43,705 nt of DNA. Origin: Vectrevirus T147P1. This document shows positions 3,993 through 28,348 of the stretch, piece by piece. Each line of letters begins with the position of its first letter. The first letter of the stretch is position 1. Location: sequence record OZ035788.1; one strand, given 5' to 3'. A model generated the notes under the pieces. The model was not told the origin of the DNA. It made no database searches and saw only the letters and a program-made list of their open reading frames with translations. The translations under genes and the position numbers were made by a program.

Positions 3993-5885
3993 ATGGCAAG
4001 ATTAACTCGCCCTGTTAGTGTATTTAATAGTCTGATGGATATTACTTACCCATGCTCCACTGATGGTGGTAAAGCGGAACTACTACAGGTTATACCCGGA
4101 CGTATGTCTGGTGGTGGTATCCTACTTTGGGACGCCAGTATGCCTCAGTCCAATCATAATGGTATTACCATCCTCAGCCCTGAAGCTAAATGGGATGGTA
4201 CTCTAGAAGGTTTTAAGGCCTATAGGGAAAGTGGAGGGACTGGCAATGGTTGCTGGGTTCGACCACGCAAAGGTACTGATCTGATGGCATCTTGGGCTGG
4301 TGTTGACACAGACGGGGACTGGATTGCGGATGAGCCACTTATGGCGCTGTGTCAGATTGCACATACACAACGTCGTAATATACGCATAGACTCTGGTGCT
4401 GTCATTCGTTGCGGTTTCACAACTCCGATTTCTCAGCAAGACAAGCACAACATTCTATCTCAAACATCTTTTGTATTACGTGGTTTAAAGAACTTCTCCA
4501 TATATGCTGAGCAAGATGCAGAGATAATCACAGACCACCCTGTACATCGTGAGCGTACAGTATTCTTCTTGGACGGTTGCGATAAGGTTACAATTTCTGG
4601 TCTTAAGTTTAATTCTGATTTCAGCGATTATTCTTTCGAACCTAATAGTCCCTATGAGCACCATATCAATGAACACTGGTTAGGTGTAGTTGCAGAGGCT
4701 TGTGGTACTGTTGAGGTTCGCAGATGTAGGTTCAATGCACCTCAGTTTGCTGTAAAGGCCGACTGTTTTAATAGAACAGACGGTAGGTGGAATGACACAG
4801 TTGCAGTAAAAGATTGTTTCTTCCAGTATGCTACAAACTATTGCTTTTTATCACGTAAGTTACGACATTACATCTTCTCTGATAATGAAGTAAGATTTAA
4901 TGGACGTAAGTGGCATACATATGGAGAGGCTTGTGCTCCTACTACCTATACTGAGAATCAGATTATCACTCGTAACCGTTTCATAGATCAGATTGCTGGT
5001 CAAAGCTGTATAACTCCTGGTTCTTATGCTAAGCAAGTACTTATTTCAGATAACTTCTGTCAACGTAGTAATGGTATCTTTGTTGAGATAGGCAGTGCTA
5101 GTAATATTAATATTCTTAACAACGTCTCCAAATCTACAGGTGAACGCATCGTCCACGGAAGTGATAAGTATGCAGGAACTACACATATCCTTCTAGTATC
5201 TGGGGCAGTTGATGATGAACCTGCTGGTGGGCTAAGTAATATCTTGATTCAAGGTAATAACTTCCAAGGCGGTGGTTATGCTTTACAAGAGTACAATACA
5301 GGCATCCCTATTCGTCGCGGGTTGGATATTCTTAATAACCACCTTGTAGACTGTATTCCACCAGCCTGTACTAACCAATCCTTTAAGTATATTAGGGTAG
5401 AAGGTAACTACATCCAAGCACCGGATGATTACCCAGATATGGCTATTGCAGGTCAACACCCTATTATCAAGGATAATGTCCTTATCGGTGTGCGATTGAG
5501 GGCTAGAGATTTAGGTTATACTGTTGTAGGGTTAAAAGTAATAGGTAATACTTTTACTGCAAATAGTGTAGCATCTAAGTTCCCTGCACTGATAGACTAC
5601 ACTGATCTAGAAGATCTTGAAGCTTATGACAACGCAGCAGGTATTCAGGCATCTTATGATAGCTTTATAGTAGCACCTGATTACTGTAATAAAATTAGCT
5701 TTATGAAAGTAGGTATGGTTGAAGGTTTTACACAGACACCAGCAGCGGTTTATGGTAGTAAGTTGCAAGGCCAGAAGGCAGGTGCGATTGTTGGCAATAG
5801 TGCACCTGGGTCTGTACATGGTTGTGCTGCATTCGTGAGTACTTCTAGTGGTGGTTGGGGTTTTATAAACTACGTTCCCGCATAA
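3993..5885 (+). CDS. tailspike protein 1, beta-helix depolymerase-like
   Basis: 630 aa from the ATG after AGGAGG (ORF opens at 3933); repetitive beta-helix-like segments (NILIQGNNFQGGGY, ITRNRFID); position after terminase as in SP6/K1-5. Confidence 0.75.
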   Translation: MARLTRPVSVFNSLMDITYPCSTDGGKAELLQVIPGRMSGGGILLWDASMPQSNHNGITILSPEAKWDGTLEGFKAYRESGGTGNGCWVRPRKGTDLMASWAGVDTDGDWIADEPLMALCQIAHTQRRNIRIDSGAVIRCGFTTPISQQDKHNILSQTSFVLRGLKNFSIYAEQDAEIITDHPVHRERTVFFLDGCDKVTISGLKFNSDFSDYSFEPNSPYEHHINEHWLGVVAEACGTVEVRRCRFNAPQFAVKADCFNRTDGRWNDTVAVKDCFFQYATNYCFLSRKLRHYIFSDNEVRFNGRKWHTYGEACAPTTYTENQIITRNRFIDQIAGQSCITPGSYAKQVLISDNFCQRSNGIFVEIGSASNINILNNVSKSTGERIVHGSDKYAGTTHILLVSGAVDDEPAGGLSNILIQGNNFQGGGYALQEYNTGIPIRRGLDILNNHLVDCIPPACTNQSFKYIRVEGNYIQAPDDYPDMAIAGQHPIIKDNVLIGVRLRARDLGYTVVGLKVIGNTFTANSVASKFPALIDYTDLEDLEAYDNAAGIQASYDSFIVAPDYCNKISFMKVGMVEGFTQTPAAVYGSKLQGQKAGAIVGNSAPGSVHGCAAFVSTSSGGWGFINYVPA

Positions 5886-5970: not shown

Positions 5971-7683
5971 ATGCTTCAAAGATTAAGTGCTTACTTGGTG
6001 AAGTACAAGAGTAAACTAACAGGTACTATTGAGCGCCTGCTATCTGATAAACTATCGGATACAATAGATGTTGCGGATTTTGGAGTTAATCCATCTTCTA
6101 ATGACAACAGGCAAGCCCTTCAAGCTGCATTCAATGCGGTCAGATTTCTAGGCGGTGGTACTGTATCAGTCACTAAAGCTGGCGAATATAAACTCAGTGG
6201 TACTGTTGAGATATTTGCTAATACACACTTCAAGGTTGCTAAAGGTGTAACATTTGTACGTGACTACGAAACAGGAGATACGCTATTCAGATTATCACAA
6301 GGGCAAGCTAGTAATGTAACAGTCAGTGGAGGTGTCTATGAAGGCAATGGTCACATTAAAGGAGATACACCTTTTGTAGTATTTGCATCTACTAGTAATA
6401 ATGATTTGAAGTTTGAAGGCATAACAGTTAACAATGTAGTGGACTACCACGCCATAGATTTAGCAGATTGGAACAACGTAGTTATTCGTGATTGTAAGTT
6501 CCTAGGGTTTAAGAATACAGGCAGTCGTAACTTCTCAGAGGCTATACAGTTAGACCCAGGACTTATTACAGTAGGTCGCTATGTGCAGTCTAGTGGTTTA
6601 CTGGTAGAGAATTGCTATGCTGGCCCAAACCTTGATTCTGGATTTGGCGGGTATGGTGCTCTAGTAGGAAATCATGCATCAGCTTATGGTGTTCAAGATA
6701 ACAACATTAGAATCCTAAATTGCACTACAGATGGTGCGCTCTTTGCAGGTGTACGTGTATTTAACTGGAAAAACTGGACAGTACGTGGTTGCACCTTTAG
6801 AAACTCTAATGCAAGAGGTATTCATGTTACACCTGTCTCCTCTCAAACTAAACCGCAAGGAACTCGACAAGGTAGTGTTGTAGATTGTACTTTTGATGGC
6901 GTAAGAACACCAGTGCTAATTGCGGCACCATCTTGGCCTTTTACCGATATTAGTGACATTTGGCATGACCATGTTGAAGTTTCTAATAATACTATGATCC
7001 TCACAGAGGATGTATCCTATGGTATAGATGCAAGGTGGTGTAAGAATTTAATTGTAAAAGGTAATACAGGCTCTGGTGGCTTAGGGTTAATCGGTTTACG
7101 CTTTGGGACAAAATACCACATCGAAGGTAATACTTGGGAAAACGGAAGAGGTAGTGGGATTTGGTTAGGTGAGTCTGATGCTGCTACATTCATTGGTACT
7201 GGCTTATCGGGCGAAGGTATACTTAGTCGTAATATCCTCTCTAAATTAGGGCAATATGGTATTCATGTAAACTGCAAGGTTGGCGGTCTAGTGATTAAGG
7301 CTAATAATATGAAGGAAGTATCTACAGCTGAAGCAGGTAGGCACTTCATTAGCATAGACACAGGAGCTAACAACATCCTAGTAGAAGGTAATATTGGAGT
7401 AGATGGAGAAAGCCCTAACAAGCCAAGCCTTGGTATTCGTGTTACTTCTTCTTGCTCCAATATTAAACTAATTGGCAATGATTGCTATGGTACGCAAGCA
7501 CCTCAGAATAACCAAGGAGTCGGTTCTAGTACGGTGATTGTTTATGGACTAAATGGTAATCCTACAACTTTAGGCGTAGGTGCACCTGTAGGCTCTTTAG
7601 CAACTGATATCAATGGGTCTGGTGGTAGTACATTGTACGTTAAAGAATCTGGTACATCTGCTCAAGGTTGGGTTGCAAAGTAG
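5971..7683 (+). CDS. tailspike protein 2, pectate-lyase-like beta-helix
   Basis: 570 aa; AGGAGG RBS; repeated beta-helix rungs (NNIRILNCTTDG, VRGCTFRNSNARGIHV). Confidence 0.75.
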   Translation: MLQRLSAYLVKYKSKLTGTIERLLSDKLSDTIDVADFGVNPSSNDNRQALQAAFNAVRFLGGGTVSVTKAGEYKLSGTVEIFANTHFKVAKGVTFVRDYETGDTLFRLSQGQASNVTVSGGVYEGNGHIKGDTPFVVFASTSNNDLKFEGITVNNVVDYHAIDLADWNNVVIRDCKFLGFKNTGSRNFSEAIQLDPGLITVGRYVQSSGLLVENCYAGPNLDSGFGGYGALVGNHASAYGVQDNNIRILNCTTDGALFAGVRVFNWKNWTVRGCTFRNSNARGIHVTPVSSQTKPQGTRQGSVVDCTFDGVRTPVLIAAPSWPFTDISDIWHDHVEVSNNTMILTEDVSYGIDARWCKNLIVKGNTGSGGLGLIGLRFGTKYHIEGNTWENGRGSGIWLGESDAATFIGTGLSGEGILSRNILSKLGQYGIHVNCKVGGLVIKANNMKEVSTAEAGRHFISIDTGANNILVEGNIGVDGESPNKPSLGIRVTSSCSNIKLIGNDCYGTQAPQNNQGVGSSTVIVYGLNGNPTTLGVGAPVGSLATDINGSGGSTLYVKESGTSAQGWVAK

Positions 7684-7842: not shown

Positions 7843-7913
7843 GCAGGTTAATATCTTAGTGTACACAAGGGTAGACCTAGGTTTGCTCTTAGTGTATTTA
7901 CAATGGAGGTCTT

Positions 7914-7994
7914 ATGTATATACCTATGGAAGCAATAGTAGGTTGCCTATGCTTGTTGATAGGTTTCGTTATAGGCTTAATAGTAAATCCTTAG
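7914..7994 (+). CDS. tiny hydrophobic peptide
   Basis: 26 aa MYIPMEAIVGCLCLLIGFVIGLIVNP with GGAGG RBS 5 nt upstream. Confidence 0.3.
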   Translation: MYIPMEAIVGCLCLLIGFVIGLIVNP

Positions 7995-8056
7995 TCCTGT
8001 ACAAGGATTAACCAAAGTCAAAATTTTGATATAGGCGTGTGTCAGCTCTCTCGCCC

Positions 8057-8330
8057 TCGCCCTCGCCGGATTTCCCCCATATGGGGCCGCGCTGCGGTTG
8101 GCTTGGGAATTGGGCTGGGCTGGTCCGTCTTCGACGGGTGGCCTAGGGCTTGCCGAGGTCTGCTCTTAGTGACTGCACAAGGAGAACGCCTAGGAAGCGC
8201 TAGGGCACGCCTTAGTATTGGACAAGGTGATTGCCTTAGTGAAGCCTCTTAGTGCATTCCTTAGGCCATTCAGGGTGTTTATGAGGGATTGACAGGGTAT
8301 GATGGCGTGGGCTATCTGTTCGTTTCGTTC
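8057..8330. other. candidate terminal-repeat / physical genome end region
   Basis: GC-rich block beginning TCTCTCGCCCTCGCC, with palindrome CCCCATATGGGG (8085-8096) and a T7 CJ-like ATCTGTT (8313-8319); strongly reminiscent of the T7 terminal repeat; exact ends not determinable. Confidence 0.4.
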
Positions 8331-8638
8331 ACTCCGCTTGCGCTACGTTCACTCGCTCACGTGTACCTTAGGTTATTACTTGATGGATAGCTTAGGTTAA
8401 CCTTAGTGGACTACCTTAGTTAAAGCCTTAGTGCTTATCTTAGTAATAGCTTAGTAGTGTACCTTAGTAAGTCTTAGTGTCTTCTCTTAGTGATTGCACA
8501 TGCAAGCATGTAAGATGCCATTAGGTCGCGGTCGGTAGACCGCTAAAGAAAGAGAATAGTAATAAGATGCAGTAAGAGGAACACCGGAAACCTAGCCAAC
8601 CTAACCTATCCTAGCTCTGTATCTATTGCTTTTCCTTA

Positions 8639-8654
8639 GTCTCACATGTTAGAC
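8639..8654. repeat. degenerate copy of the 16-bp palindrome (GTCTCACATGTTAGAC)
   Basis: One mismatch to GTCTCACATGTGAGAC. Confidence 0.4.
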
Positions 8655-8688
8655 AACCTATCTTATTCTTAGTGATGATAACTTAGTG

Positions 8689-8717
8689 TTGACAAGATAA
8701 TCTTAGTGTAATACTAT
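8689..8717 (+). promoter_or_regulatory. candidate host sigma70 early promoter
   Basis: TTGACA, 17-nt spacer, TACTAT, upstream of the first early genes. Confidence 0.35.
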
Positions 8718-8860
8718 GCATCACGTAGGCGGTGCTGAGGCACCTAGTAGCCAGCTAGTAAGGCATACGAAGAGACTAGTGCTTACATTGCTCTTTAACA
8801 ATTTGCTTAGTGTAACCTATGTATGCCGTGGTTAATTACTTATTGAATGAGGGATTAACT

Positions 8861-9040
8861 ATGACATTAAACAACCGTGAACTATCCGTTCTCTTCACTC
8901 TGTTGTGCTACATGATTCGTAACAACGAATTGCTTACAGATGACGAGTTGGCACTGTATCACCGCTTTCTTAACGAAGGTTGGACCGATACAGTTAATCA
9001 ATACCGTAACATGATAGATGAGTTGAGGGAGGGTAAATAA
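8861..9040 (+). CDS. early hypothetical protein
   Basis: ORF opens at 8819 but the GAGGG RBS precedes the ATG at 8861; translationally coupled to the next ORF. Confidence 0.5.
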   Translation: MTLNNRELSVLFTLLCYMIRNNELLTDDELALYHRFLNEGWTDTVNQYRNMIDELREGK

Positions 9041-9264
9041 TGTATCAACATGATGTATTCTTTGAATCAGCTAGTGAAGCTATCCGCTTCCGTGATGATA
9101 TGATGCAAGCTGGTGTAGGCGTTGATGTGTATCACTATTTGATAGATTACGACACTGAATATCACCGAGTTACCTTAGTATCTGAGTATGACAACCAAGT
9201 CATTACTGAGTATCTAGGCAGTGAAGATTACGATTACGATGAAGTAATCACGACAAATCTCTAA
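9040..9264 (+). CDS. early acidic Tyr/Asp-rich hypothetical protein
   Basis: 74 aa; GAGGG RBS; TAAATG overlap with the upstream ORF. Confidence 0.55.
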   Translation: MYQHDVFFESASEAIRFRDDMMQAGVGVDVYHYLIDYDTEYHRVTLVSEYDNQVITEYLGSEDYDYDEVITTNL

Positions 9265-9272
9265 ATTAACTG

Positions 9273-9301
9273 TTGACAGCCACGGCATACAAGGTTACAT
9301 T
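9273..9301 (+). promoter_or_regulatory. candidate host sigma70 promoter
   Basis: TTGACA, 17-nt spacer, TACATT. Confidence 0.3.
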
Positions 9302-9393
9302 AAGCATCAAGACGGCGACGTCTTTAAACATCCCGCTCTTTAACAATACGGTTTGTGTCTTGATAGGCTAACTAACTAACTAAGGTAATTATC

Positions 9394-9504
9394 ATGAAAG
9401 GTTTAATTTGTGTAGAACGTATGGTCAATGGTAAACTTGAAATATTACCACTGGAAAACCAATCTAGCTTCAAAGAGTGGTATGGCTGTTTCTCACTGAT
9501 TTAA
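9394..9504 (+). CDS. small early hypothetical protein
   Basis: 36-aa ORF preceded by the three-frame stop CTAACTAACTAA and a weak RBS. Confidence 0.35.
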   Translation: MKGLICVERMVNGKLEILPLENQSSFKEWYGCFSLI

Positions 9505-9655
9505 GGTAAAGGCTGGCACTAGTCAGCCTATCAAGGCGCAAACCAAGCTCTTTAACAATTTGGATGGTAGCTTCTTAGTCTGGATAGGTTAAACCTAGGG
9601 GATTCTCTTGAGTCTCCTATAATGTAACCTAACTAACTAAATGAGGATTAATAAC

Positions 9656-10009
9656 ATGGCTATGTCTAATATGACTTACTCTCAGGTTTACAACACCGCT
9701 CATGCTGCATTAGTTGAACGTATCTGGGATGATGCTATTGATTGTATCGATAACGCACATGATGCAATCCATGAGGTGGCGGATAGTGCTGTACCAATCT
9801 ATTATGCTGACATCTTCTCAGTGATGGCCAGTGAAGGCATCGACCACTTCTTCGAGGATTCTGGCTTAATGCCAGACACTAAGGATGTGACGGTCGTACT
9901 ACAAGCCCGTATTTATGAACAACTCACCATTGATTTATGGGAACGTGTTCAAGATATGATTGATGAGTACATCGATTCCGCTGAGGATTCAGAAGAAGAG
10001 GAAGAATAA
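9656..10009 (+). CDS. ocr: Ocr-like DNA-mimic anti-restriction protein (T7 gp0.3 homolog)
   Basis: 117 aa; starts MAMSNMTY and contains [43 protein letters not shown] and an acidic C-terminus, matching T7 Ocr as I recall it; ORF opens at 9641 but the RBS supports 9656. Confidence 0.85.
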
Positions 10010-10011
10010 GG

Positions 10012-10125
10012 ATGGAAAAGCAATATAACTTTATCTTTTCAGACGGTGTAACCCTGAAGTGTTCCCTACGATTCGCTCAGATTCGTGAGGAAGTGCTAGG
10101 TACTACATACAAACTATTTATCTGA
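10012..10125 (+). CDS. small hypothetical protein
   Basis: 37-aa ORF directly after ocr. Confidence 0.3.
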   Translation: MEKQYNFIFSDGVTLKCSLRFAQIREEVLGTTYKLFI

Positions 10126-10201
10126 CACTATAAGAGAAGGCTTAACAAGGCGTTACTACGGTAGCGCCTGATTAAACTTTCACTGACTAGAGGTTAAAAT
10201 T

Positions 10202-10327: not shown

Positions 10328-10388
10328 ATAGCCTATAGCCTACCTATGTGGGCTATGTGATATTTACTTACACTATAAGGTGATTAAT

Positions 10389-11375: not shown

Positions 11376-14003
11376 ATGCAAGACCTACACGCTATTCAAC
11401 TTCAACTTGAAGAAGAAATGTTTAACGGCGGTATCCGTCGCTTTGAAGCGGACCAACAACGCCAGATTGCATCCGGTAATGAATCAGACACGGCATGGAA
11501 TCGCCGCTTATTGTCCGAGTTAATCGCGCCAATGGCTGAAGGTATTCAGGCTTATAAGGAAGAGTACGAAGGCAAGCGCGGTCGTGCACCACGTGCATTG
11601 GCTTTCATTAACTGCGTAGAAAATGAAGTGGCAGCGTATATCACGATGAAGATCGTAATGGATATGCTTAACACTGATGTAACCTTGCAAGCTATCGCTA
11701 TGAATGTAGCTGACCGCATCGAAGACCAAGTGCGCTTCAGTAAACTAGAAGGCCATGCAGCTAAATATTTTGAGAAGGTCAAGAAGTCACTTAAGGCAAG
11801 TAAGACTAAATCATATCGCCATGCGCACAATGTAGCGGTCGTGGCTGAGAAGTCAGTAGCTGACCGTGACGCTGATTTCTCTCGCTGGGAAGCGTGGCCT
11901 AAAGATACCTTGCTACAAATTGGTATGACCTTGCTAGAAATACTGGAAAATAGTGTATTCTTCAACGGGCAGCCTGTTTTCATCCGCACCTTGCGTACTA
12001 ATGGCGGCAAACACGGTGTTTACTACTTACAGACTAGTGAACACGTTGGCGAGTGGATAACCGCCTTCAAAGAGCACGTAGCGCAACTAAGCCCTGCATA
12101 TGCACCTTGCGTTATTCCTCCGCGTCCGTGGGTTTCACCTTTCAACGGTGGGTTTCATACTGAGAAAGTAGCAAGCCGTATCCGCCTTGTTAAAGGCAAC
12201 CGTGAGCACGTCCGTAAGTTAACTAAAAAGCAAATGCCAGCGGTCTATAAGGCTGTTAACGCCTTACAAGCTACTAAGTGGCAGGTTAACAAGGAAGTAT
12301 TGCAGGTAGTAGAAGATGTTATTCGTCTAGACCTCGGTTATGGTGTACCTTCCTTTAAGCCGCTCATTGACCGCGAGAACAAACCAGCTAACCCTGTTCC
12401 TCTTGAGTTCCAACACCTGAGAGGCCGTGAACTGAAAGAGATGCTTACGCCAGAACAGTGGCAAGCTTTTATAAACTGGAAAGGAGAATGTACCAAGCTG
12501 TATACCGCTGAAACTAAGCGCGGAAGCAAGTCGGCGGCGACCGTTCGCATGGTTGGACAGGCCCGTAAATACAGCCAGTTTGACGCAATTTATTTTGTGT
12601 ATGCACTGGACAGCCGTTCGCGCGTTTATGCGCAATCTAGCACGCTCTCGCCGCAATCAAACGACTTAGGCAAGGCATTGCTCCGTTTTACCGAAGGGCA
12701 GCGTCTTGATAGCGCTGAGGCGCTTAAGTGGTTTTTGGTGAACGGGGCGAATAATTGGGGTTGGGATAAGAAAACTTTTGACGTGCGCACCGCTAACGTG
12801 CTGGATGGCGAATTTCAAGACATGTGCCGCGATATTGCAGCCGACCCGCTGACCTTCACTCAATGGGTAAATGCTGATTCCCCTTACGGCTTCCTTGCAT
12901 GGTGCTTTGAATATGCGCGTTATCTGGATGCACTGGATGAAGGCACGCAAGACCAATTCATGACGCACCTACCCGTCCATCAAGACGGTAGTTGCTCTGG
13001 TATCCAGCACTATAGCGCGATGTTACGCGATGAAGTAGGTGCGAAAGCAGTAAACCTTAAGCCTTCTGACTCCCCTCAAGATATTTATGGCGCGGTTGCG
13101 CAGGTTGTTATCCAGAAGAATTACGCCTACATGAATGCAGACGATGCAGAGACTTTCACATCTGGAAGCGTCACACTTACAGGTGCAGAACTGCGTAGCA
13201 TGGCTAGTGCGTGGGATATGATAGGAATCACTCGCGGATTGACCAAAAAGCCCGTAATGACACTACCTTATGGCAGCACACGTCTAACCTGCCGTGAATC
13301 AGTGATTGATTATATCGTTGATTTGGAAGAAAAAGAGGCCCAACGAGCTATTGCGGAAGGACGTACCGCCAATCCTGTACATCCTTTTGATAATGACCGT
13401 AAGGACAGCCTGACACCTAGCGCAGCTTATAACTATATGACAGCTTTAATCTGGCCTTCTATTTCGGAAGTGGTTAAAGCTCCTATAGTGGCAATGAAAA
13501 TGATTCGTCAGCTTGCCCGTTTCGCAGCTAAAAGGAATGAAGGCCTAGAGTATACCTTGCCTACTGGCTTCATCTTGCAACAAAAGATAATGGCTACTGA
13601 TATGCTCCGCGTATCCACTTGCCTGATGGGGGAAATCAAGATGAGTCTACAGATTGAAACGGACGTAGTGGATGAAACGGCTATGATGGGCGCTGCTGCT
13701 CCTAACTTTGTGCATGGTCATGATGCCAGTCACCTTATCTTAACAGTCTGCGACCTTGTTGATAAAGGGATTACATCTATCGCAGTCATTCATGATTCTT
13801 TCGGTACTCACGCAGGCCGTACAGCCGATCTACGTGATAGTCTAAGGGCAGAAATGGTGAAGATGTATCAAGGCCGTAATGCCCTGCAAAGCCTGTTAGA
13901 TGAGCATGAAGAACGCTGGTTAGTAGACACCGGAATCCAAGTGCCAGAGCAAGGAGAGTTTGACCTTAACGAAATCTTAGTATCTGACTATTGCTTCGCA
14001 TAA
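11376..14003 (+). CDS. single-subunit DNA-dependent RNA polymerase (SP6/T7 family)
   Basis: 875 aa; N-terminus [32 protein letters not shown]... and internal [25 protein letters not shown] / [11 protein letters not shown] / IHDSFGTHA match SP6 RNAP as recalled; AGGAG RBS. Confidence 0.97.
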
Positions 14004-14011
14004 TATTAATA

Positions 14012-14040
14012 GGCCATTCCTTCGGGAGTGGCCTTTTCTT
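14012..14040 (+). terminator. intrinsic terminator after the RNAP gene (TE-like)
   Basis: GGCCATTCC-TTCG-GGAGTGGCC hairpin (9 bp, UUCG loop) followed by TTTTCTTTT. Confidence 0.6.
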
Positions 14041-14076
14041 TTACCTACTACCGGTAACATTTCATTAACATAAAGT

Positions 14077-14092
14077 GTCTCACATGTGAGAC
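14077..14092. repeat. 16-bp palindrome GTCTCACATGTGAGAC (copy 1)
   Basis: Perfect palindrome immediately upstream of the promoter at 14095. Confidence 0.8.
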
Positions 14093-14094
14093 TT

Positions 14095-27886: not shown

Positions 27887-28348
27887 ATGATACGTCCAGC
27901 TTCCTTCCTAGATATCCCTGAGATTATAAACCTTGGGAATAAATATGTGGAAGAGGAAGTCAAGGTAGTGGCCCATCACTCAGCCTCATGGAATGCAGAA
28001 CAAAGTGCACATAACCTTTGTGCATCTCTTAGTAGAGAAGATTTATTCCTATGGGTGGCTGTAGATGAAGGGAAGATTGTAGGGTTCCTGTGGGCTGGCT
28101 ATCACGAGTTAGCCCCTTGGACACCTGTAAGGGTTGCCTCTGACATTCTCTTTTACATTATACCAGAGAAGCGAGGGACACTACTAGGTATGCGTCTTAT
28201 CAAGGCTCTTAAACAATGGGCTAATGAAAATGAATGCTCTGAGGTTCGCCTGTCTATCGCCTCTGGTATTAATGAAGAACGTGTCGGACGTATGTATAAG
28301 CGACTTGGCTTTGAACCGTTTGGCACTGTGTACAACCTGAAGTTCTAA
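27887..28348 (+). CDS. GNAT-family N-acetyltransferase
   Basis: 153 aa; acetyl-CoA-binding-like core RGTLLGMRLIKALKQWA and C-terminal RLGFEPFG (ORF opens at 27860). Confidence 0.65.
   Translation: MIRPASFLDIPEIINLGNKYVEEEVKVVAHHSASWNAEQSAHNLCASLSREDLFLWVAVDEGKIVGFLWAGYHELAPWTPVRVASDILFYIIPEKRGTLLGMRLIKALKQWANENECSEVRLSIASGINEERVGRMYKRLGFEPFGTVYNLKF

Follow-up and report, generated by a model that had tools for sequence, protein, structure and literature searches.

The early region of Vectrevirus T147P1 (sequence record OZ035788.1; the whole stretch analysed, 43,705 nucleotides, is called the window) begins with a series of small genes among which a sequence of 12 nucleotides (nt), CTCTTTAACAAT, is repeated. 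Exact copies lie at 8791-8802, 9336-9347 and 9548-9559, all on the + strand and within 770 nt, and there is no other on either strand of the 43.7 kilobases (kb). Over 8400-9700 the window shares 95-98% identity with the left ends of Escherichia phages KMB14, AAPEc6 and K1-5 and of many records labelled 'Vectrevirus', and it is therefore a circularly permuted K1-5/K1E-like genome of the SP6 group (Autographiviridae, Molineuxvirinae). Nucleotide 1 of K1-5 corresponds to window position ~8081, and the three copies sit at the very start of the early region.

The early transcript presumably starts near 8724, from a putative sigma-70 promoter, P1 (TTGACA-17-TACTAT, 8689-8717, + strand), that matched 10 of 12 positions in a consensus scan. 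Downstream on the same strand lie two small genes, at 8861-9040 (59 amino acids, aa) and 9040-9264 (74 aa), which match K1-5 genes 1 and 2 and the families phrog_9275 and phrog_6403, both of unknown function. They are followed by a second putative promoter, P2 (TTGACA-17-TACATT, 9273-9301, + strand, also 10 of 12), a 36-aa open reading frame (ORF) at 9394-9504 (+ strand) with no match in PHROG, and ocr, the homologue of T7 gene 0.3, at 9656-10009 (+ strand; phrog_2568, ocr-like, E = 5.6e-50; annotated as Ocr in relatives). The gene ocr is the first beyond the last copy of the repeat, from which it is separated by a local hairpin; the consensus scan found no sigma-70 promoter before this last copy.

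An initial annotation had placed the repeat in three early intergenic regions and read it as an RNase III processing signal like those of T7, with a different sequence solution. The positions were right, but the first copy lies in the leader of the first gene and not between ORFs. We argue below that the 12-mer is, by its sequence, boxA, a loading signal for NusB/NusE (S10), and that two of the three copies adjoin long-range RNA helices that enclose gene cassettes.

A ribosomal-type boxA in three copies

The conserved unit is GCTCTTTAACAAT, one base longer than CTCTTTAACAAT, and all three copies read xGCTCTTTAACAAT. The first, boxA1 (T-GCTCTTTAACAAT, 8790-8802), lies in the 5' leader of the first early gene, whose ATG is at 8861; boxA2 (C-GCTCTTTAACAAT, 9335-9347) lies ~29-30 nt after the P2 start and the trailer strand of the first helix; and boxA3 (A-GCTCTTTAACAAT, 9547-9559) is the positional counterpart of the single boxA of T7. 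All three are exact matches on the sense strand, in untranslated leaders, 58-108 nt ahead of start codons, and boxA1 and boxA2 stand downstream of consensus sigma-70 promoters of the form TTGACA-17-TAxxxT.

The match to the host signal is extensive. In Escherichia coli, the rrnB leader carries GCTCTTTAACAATTT just after rrnB promoter P2; boxA1 equals this boxA over 15 nt, and the three copies are identical to it over 13-15 nt. All three also fit the E. coli rrn boxA, UGCUCUUUAACAA, and GYTCTTTAANA, the consensus of functional gamma-proteobacterial boxA (PMC5725501). boxA is the RNA recognised by NusB-NusE (PMC3177189; PMC12360218). When the window was scanned with the 12-mer GCTCTTTAACAA, three matches were exact and five had at most one mismatch, compared with 0.34 expected. 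The two look-alikes, GCTCTTTAGCAA and GCTCTTAAACAA (7592-7603 and 28205-28216, + strand), lie inside late genes and are probably chance matches, both violating the consensus at conserved positions.

The same element is present in T7, at 813-825, between promoter A3 (750) and gene 0.3 (925). The initial proposal of a sequence solution different from that of T7 thus does not hold, the 12-mer being shared with both T7 and the rrnB leader. Mutations in the T7 boxA make Gp2 dispensable, indicating that boxA anti-terminates transcription by the host polymerase (Savalia 2010, as cited in PMC3709561). The T7 element is identical and genetically anti-terminating, and the repeat therefore has genetic support in a related phage. 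The 12-mer itself is thus already explained, boxA in T7 being known; from the sequence identity we infer that Nus factors bind, and anti-terminate, at the three copies found here.

Relatives keep the element. Perfect copies, one to three per genome, are present in 12 annotated phages of several subfamilies and in many IMG/VR contigs, always on the + strand of the early region, as in SP6, K1E, K1-5, LL11, BP12B, K1-ULIP33, phD2B, Pm5460, K30, PhiM1 and Peggy. The boxA that precedes ocr in SP6 (1536-1546) reads GATCTTTAACA, with A replacing C/T at consensus position 2, a variant that the published consensus does not cover; the hairpin that follows it is intact. Our literature search returned no paper linking boxA with SP6, K1-5 or Autographiviridae, though the original SP6, K1-5 and K1E papers may mention it. 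Rfam gave nothing over the whole window at gathering thresholds and, for 8600-9700 at E ≤ 1, chance matches at the level of small nucleolar RNAs only.

Long-range helices and a local hairpin beside boxA

A helix strand begins 2-4 nt 3' of each boxA. The sequence that follows boxA1 and boxA2 is complementary to a stretch that reaches the next boxA or stops a short way ahead of it. Helix 1 joins a 5' (leader) strand at 8804-8833, with a bulged A at 8819, to a 3' (trailer) strand at 9278-9306 (both + strand; RNAduplex, -48.1 kcal/mol). It comprises 29 base pairs (bp) with one bulge and a loop of 444 nt that holds both small early genes; its trailer strand overlaps P2, which is embedded in it, and ends ~29 nt before boxA2. 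Helix 2 joins 9350-9369 to 9526-9545 (both + strand; -40 kcal/mol, two U-G wobbles) through ~20 bp and encloses the 36-aa ORF in a loop of 156 nt, its 3' strand ending 1 nt before boxA3; a weaker pairing can reach 9381, by way of a motif, CTAACTAACTAA, considered below. In K1E, LL11 and K30 a gene 2.8-type ORF takes the place of the 36-aa ORF between the same helix 2 arms, and in nearly all relatives TTGACA stands directly ahead of the helix 1-type trailer strand.

These pairing energies are outliers against two sets of controls. Shuffled arms gave minima of -22 to -31 kcal/mol, and 274 native 36-nt segments of the same genome gave -25.1 +/- 4.3 kcal/mol, with -36.0 for the best other segment. 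In the fold of the whole 947-nt transcript from P1 (z = -6.9), both long-range helices and the hairpin behind boxA3 appear in the minimum free energy (MFE) and centroid structures, and boxA2 and boxA3 are unpaired in both. The flank of boxA3 has no long-range partner, its best energy (-25.2 kcal/mol) being equal to the controls.

Folding gives a local hairpin after the third copy; at the first two copies it gives long-range helices and not local hairpins around the 12-mer. The 8-bp inverted repeat described around the second copy, ATCAAGAC (9306-9313) and GTCTTGAT (9357-9364), is present but is used neither in the MFE fold nor in the other predicted folds. It is also not conserved: LL11 lacks ATCAAGAC, K1E has GCCTTGGT where GTCTTGAT stands, and the conserved partner of GTCTTGAT is ATCAAGG at 9531-9537. 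We rejected this repeat as a structural element.

To evaluate the helices across relatives, we assembled arm pairs from three IMG/VR scans and from annotated phages and made the sets non-redundant. The helix 2 set, anchored only on GATAGGC / GCCTATC and counted with a pairing tool, holds 26 distinct sequences, including three chance-anchored non-homologues. In this set 94.5% of the cells are paired and double-sided changes occur in 12 of 19 pairs (69 cells); none of 500 shuffles did as well, and registers slid out of place gave 26-41%. For helix 1 the 14 distinct sequences were placed in a gapless register of our own, because MAFFT put the arm gaps out of register, and the values are thus held to a weaker standard than the helix 2 count: 96% of cells paired, double changes in 18 of 27 pairs, none of 500 shuffles as good, and 28-41% in slid registers. 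Within helix 1, TGTA[T/A]GCC always covaries with GGC[A/T]TACA, and the distal arm exists in five unrelated versions, each complementary to its own partner. Cognate arms pair ~10 kcal/mol better than non-cognate arms (-44.3 versus -33.4 and -32.6 versus -22.2 kcal/mol). Among the cells that are not Watson-Crick pairs, G-U exceeds A-C by 41:8 and 26:7 in the two helix types, indicating selection on the + strand RNA and not on the DNA or the opposite transcript. Both long-range helices are + strand RNA structures kept by compensatory change. A literature search found no description of boxA-adjacent long-range helices in phage early operons, and no mapped transcript ends for this phage group.

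A small hairpin, GGCUGGC-ACUA-GUCAGCC (9511-9528, + strand), abuts the 3' strand of helix 2. A hairpin of 6-7 bp occupies this place in 22 of 22 genuine modules, with its stems swapped or changed, and in none of the three chance-anchored controls; presumably it is a stem-loop that protects the 3' end of the released cassette RNA.

Behind boxA3 lies a local hairpin (9575-9640, + strand; fold z = -3.1) that resembles R0.3 of T7. Its lower stem (9575-9591 / 9625-9640) and its 10-bp upper stem (9596-9605 / 9610-9619, loop UCUU) are separated by asymmetric internal loops at 9592-9595 and 9620-9624, and by analogy RNase III would make a single cut on the 3' side of the internal loop, at 9620-9625. 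The same architecture is predicted in T7 R0.3 and in 11 relatives, which have five unrelated upper-stem sequences; these are single-sequence folds, since MAFFT misplaced the arms of the 11 relatives and RNAalifold returned no pairs from that alignment. Beyond boxA and a short CTCTTGAG, nothing in T7 830-900 can be aligned with the hairpin, for which no matching Rfam family was found.

The motif CTAACTAACTAA (9368-9383, with four TAAs, and 9629-9640) carries TAA in all three frames, as the initial annotation had reported, and has no further match in the window at ≤1 mismatch (0.24 expected). The second motif, however, lies 70 nt beyond the third boxA and does not adjoin it, and the first is not conserved, being replaced by GGCTTACTAACAAAGG in K1E and LL11 and by GGCTTACTCAACGAGG in PhiM1. 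We also rejected a function as a three-frame stop: the upstream ORFs end at 9264 and 9504, none runs into either motif, and the stop is thus unnecessary. The first motif prolongs the leader strand, either unpaired or in weak pairing, immediately ahead of the Shine-Dalgarno sequence; the second is the 3' strand of the lower stem of the hairpin.

Modules in other phages and other features of the window

The order boxA, leader strand, small gene, hairpin, trailer strand recurs with varied cargo in Molineuxvirinae, in K30 (Studiervirinae) and in PhiM1 (Corkvirinae), and with unrelated arm sequences in four other viral contigs. It is also found in the first-step-transfer (pre-early) terminal repeat of T5-like phages (Demerecviridae), where leader and trailer pair at -38 to -50 kcal/mol and the trailers lie ~266-370 nt downstream. 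T5 (~4680-4988, - strand) has GCTCTTTAAAA at 4988, and the strand behind it finds its partner 266 nt downstream, at -49.9 kcal/mol; Pectobacterium phage My1 (3148-3960) has two consecutive modules. A sigma-70 promoter is embedded in the trailer in T5 (TTGACA-17-TAAGAT) and in the second My1 module (TTGACA-17-TATGAT).

Four prophage-like contigs and about 30 other IMG/VR loci of the same large group have a hairpin, AAGCGCCC...GGACGCTT, immediately before GCTCTTTAACAATCTGG. The example that was tested matches the lambdoid Shigella phage SfIV and its relatives, which makes this group probably nut-type sites; we set these contigs aside as SfIV-like lambdoid prophages with ordinary nut-type contexts. 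At several of these loci boxA is followed by ATCTGGATATCC, which recurs in inverted form 480-670 nt downstream.

Beyond ocr, the phage RNA polymerase gene (11376-14003, + strand) has directly 3' of it a hairpin with a T-tract resembling an intrinsic terminator (14011-14043, + strand; 10 pairs, 6 of them G-C, followed by TTTCTTTT), found in a terminator scan and presumed from its sequence to end early transcription by the host polymerase. Between ocr and the polymerase gene lie two promoter sequences of the SP6 phage-polymerase type, ATTTATCTGACACTATAAGAGA and ATTTACTTACACTATAAGGTGA (10117-10140 and 10361-10383); genes of this 'early' region are therefore transcribable by both polymerases. The palindrome TCTCACATGTGAGA has eight copies with ≤2 mismatches (0.26 expected), at 8640, 14078, 14260, 15281, 16849, 18032, 22829 and 39231. 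Those at 14078 and 14260 precede phage promoter sequences of the SP6 type (ATTTACCGGACACTATAGGATAG at 14094) by ~16 nt, and a degenerate copy precedes host promoter P1; the palindrome could be a terminator or insulator hairpin, or an operator. The heptamer CTTAGTR has 37 copies in the window (14.9 expected), of which 17 cluster on the + strand at 7855-8812, across the genome-end or terminal-repeat region and just upstream of P1, and one, at 8806, falls within the helix 1 leader strand.

Working model and alternatives

We propose that the boxA copies load Nus factors on the host polymerase and that the adjoining helices, as in rrn operons, enclose cassettes and are cut by RNase III; we put the probability of this reading at about 70%. 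Host RNA polymerase would transcribe the early region from P1 and P2, and each nascent boxA would bind NusB-NusE(S10), which with NusA, NusG and SuhB would convert the polymerase into the fast, Rho-resistant form that operates on E. coli rrn operons. Such a polymerase could cross leaders and tiny ORFs to which ribosomes give little protection, and transcription would be secured through ocr to the polymerase gene, until the terminator-like hairpin at 14011. In T7, host transcription pulls the genome into the cell, and by analogy a faster polymerase would also speed genome entry here.

RNase III requires double-stranded RNA, and helices 1 and 2 are plausible substrates, with cleavage itself inferred from their structure. 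Cutting of the two helices and of the hairpin behind boxA3 would yield separate mRNAs with unstructured, A/C-rich 5' leaders such as UAACUAACUAAGG and with small stem-loops kept at their 3' ends. The fresh boxA after each trailer would reload Nus factors once the prior boxA has been cut off, as the rrn spacer boxA does. By holding the leader strand at the RNA exit channel, boxA-NusB could also help the leader to meet the emerging trailer, as in the 'delivery' model for rrn boxC; any such coupling of boxA to the helix is suggested by the arrangement of the two.

A close parallel is the rrn operon. There, boxB, boxA and boxC follow the promoter, with boxC 18-19 nt after boxA and within the leader strand. 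RNase III cleaves the leader-trailer helices of 25-40 bp, which covariation supports, and another boxA stands before 23S; in the current model boxA-NusB keeps the leader anchored at the RNA exit channel until its trailer has come out (PMC10250234; PMC8632103). The 16S helix of rrnB has its leader strand directly behind boxA. The phage shares the identical boxA GCTCTTTAACAATTT, the leader strand of a covarying long-range helix of 20-30 bp beginning 2-4 nt behind it, the trailer strand after the enclosed cargo and a new boxA after the trailer, as before 23S; with this spacing, the middle of the phage leader strand lies approximately where boxC lies in rrn. The phage differs in that its cargo consists of small protein-coding cassettes of 110-400 nt and not of rRNA, its loops are shorter (156-444 nt against 1.7-3 kb in rrn), the trailer strand of helix 1 incorporates a sigma-70 promoter, no boxC sequence is conserved, and an upstream boxB-like hairpin is not established.

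With T7 the phage shares boxA itself and the order of boxA, a two-helix hairpin with an internal loop and ocr/0.3: boxA3, hairpin and ocr are the positional homologue of T7 boxA, R0.3 and gene 0.3. To this extent, and in its two long duplexes, the T7-like processing of early mRNA put forward in the initial annotation is supported, with the hairpin and not the 12-mer as the putative RNase III element. Cleavage in R0.3 reportedly takes place at nt 890 (Dunn and Studier 1983). T7, however, has one boxA after three promoters where this phage has three copies, its post-boxA sequence has no long-range partner (the energy equals that of controls), and the hairpin sequences are unrelated.

The nut sites of lambda also use boxA and host Nus factors to make the host polymerase resistant to termination in phage early operons. 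They differ because no boxB follows boxA here: the RNA after boxA pairs with a partner that is distant or 60 nt away, in place of a short boxB hairpin whose loop is conserved (no search was made for an N-like protein). The phage boxA matches the rrn consensus in full, and in rrn this sequence is sufficient with no help from a phage protein (PMC10250234). Among boxA sites outside ribosomal operons, the suhB leader likewise has boxA in the 5' leader of a non-rRNA transcript and recruits Nus factors there (PMC5725501), and leaders of CRISPR arrays are reported to be such sites (PMC7665894); those sites are single and have no leader-trailer helices, and the one at suhB represses. Small early ORFs bounded by repeated regulatory sequences and apparently mobile between phages also recall the PeSL cassettes of T4-type phages, in which, as Arbiol et al. 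reportedly described in 2010, an early promoter and a stem-loop flank small ORFs. PeSL elements are local stem-loops with promoters, and they are not known to involve boxA or a long-range helix.

Several points weigh against the proposed model. To our knowledge RNase III has no reliable sequence consensus, and cleavage is for this reason not predictable from sequence. In the predicted folds boxA1 loses its 5' half, the first six bases, to a small hairpin (8770-8796) formed with an AAGAG upstream of it (8770-8775), which could limit access; K1-5 and Pm5460 have this AAGAG too. Rapid cutting of the local hairpin behind boxA3 would free this boxA from the polymerase early, with 4.4 kb remaining. 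The covariation sets were collected in part with patterns that fix 7-9 nt of one arm, leaving those columns uninformative, and for helix 1 the more favourable of two bulge placements was taken as the register. RNase III is not needed for growth of T7, and processing may thus be dispensable (PMC6938266). Finally, a boxA in a 5' untranslated region, near a start codon, can repress expression or promote Rho termination instead of favouring expression, as in suhB (PMC5725501; PMC12360218).

The most serious alternative accepts the long-range helices as real but uncut, insulating the cassettes against RNase E and exonucleases or closing an mRNA loop for ribosome recycling. Covariation proves pairing and is silent on cleavage, and the dispensability of RNase III in T7 speaks for this explanation too; however, perfect duplexes of 20-29 bp are classic RNase III substrates, and the positional parallels with rrn leader-trailer helices and T7 R0.3 are close. 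We consider uncut helices unlikely.

Rather more unlikely, in our judgement, is that boxA and the arms serve mainly as recombination junctions at the DNA level for swapping early cassettes, in the manner of the promoter/stem-loop cassettes of T4-type phages, with the RNA helices as a by-product. The same arms do flank differing cargo, the 36-aa ORF here and a gene 2.8-type ORF in K1E, LL11 and K30, and the module is spread over Molineuxvirinae, Studiervirinae (K30), Corkvirinae (PhiM1) and Demerecviridae (My1, T5). Compensatory changes in the arms and the excess of G-U over A-C nevertheless fit a + strand RNA helix and not a recombination site, and boxA is invariant and equals the host rrn signal. 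Exchange of cassettes at boxA/arm junctions is probably a real side effect, compatible with a role of the RNA.

A negative action of boxA, in which NusB/NusE near the ribosome-binding site lowers translation, provokes Rho termination and so throttles the early genes, has a precedent in suhB and is in keeping with the position of all three copies in 5' untranslated leaders. Their distance of 58-108 nt from the start codons nevertheless exceeds the 50-nt window for suhB-type sites (PMC5725501). The identical T7 element is genetically an anti-terminator, and the phage would pay a high cost for a repressor placed before ocr and on its sole route to the RNA polymerase gene; we regard this explanation as very improbable.

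That the 12-mer is itself the core of an RNase III site, a new T7-style solution with CTAACTAACTAA as a three-frame stop before the next gene, is scarcely credible: its non-coding positions in the early polycistronic region, the R0.3-like hairpin after the third copy and the three-frame TAA can be cited for it, but the 12-mer is the boxA of rrn and T7, the second and third copies are predicted to be single-stranded, the 8-bp repeat and the motif after the second copy are not conserved, the upstream ORFs stop short of CTAACTAACTAA, and the motif after the third copy is constrained as a helix strand.

The working model, boxA loading with rrn-like processing helices, can be carried further, although we hold the extended form only tentatively, at somewhat less than even chances. 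It states that virulent enterobacterial phages of at least two families (Autographiviridae: the SP6/K1-5 group, K30 and PhiM1; Demerecviridae: T5 and My1) build their immediate-early operons as working copies of rrn operons. boxA would load Nus factors and SuhB and tether the leader at the exit channel for a trailer that emerges 150-800 nt later, the trailer would double as the next sigma-70 promoter, RNase III would excise the cassettes, and the next boxA would reload the polymerase. If this is true, these operons offer a natural minimal system for the 'delivery' or RNA chaperone role of the rrn anti-termination complex, and the arms also mark exchangeable early-gene cassettes.

The repeat can now be annotated as boxA in K1-5/SP6-like therapeutic phages, with three putative Nus-loading sites, two leader-trailer helices and one R0.3-like hairpin. 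A boxA placed right before a covarying long-range helix is an arrangement whose function is debated in rRNA operons: does the complex hand the leader to the trailer? The phage helices are short, with loops of 150-800 nt, non-essential to the cell, diverse in sequence and easily mutated, and would make the delivery question testable. The combination of promoter, boxA and processing helix provides natural insulator parts for phage engineering. Finally, the presence of the same bounded cassettes across phage subfamilies and in the pre-early regions of T5-like phages suggests a shared way to add and insulate small genes for host takeover.

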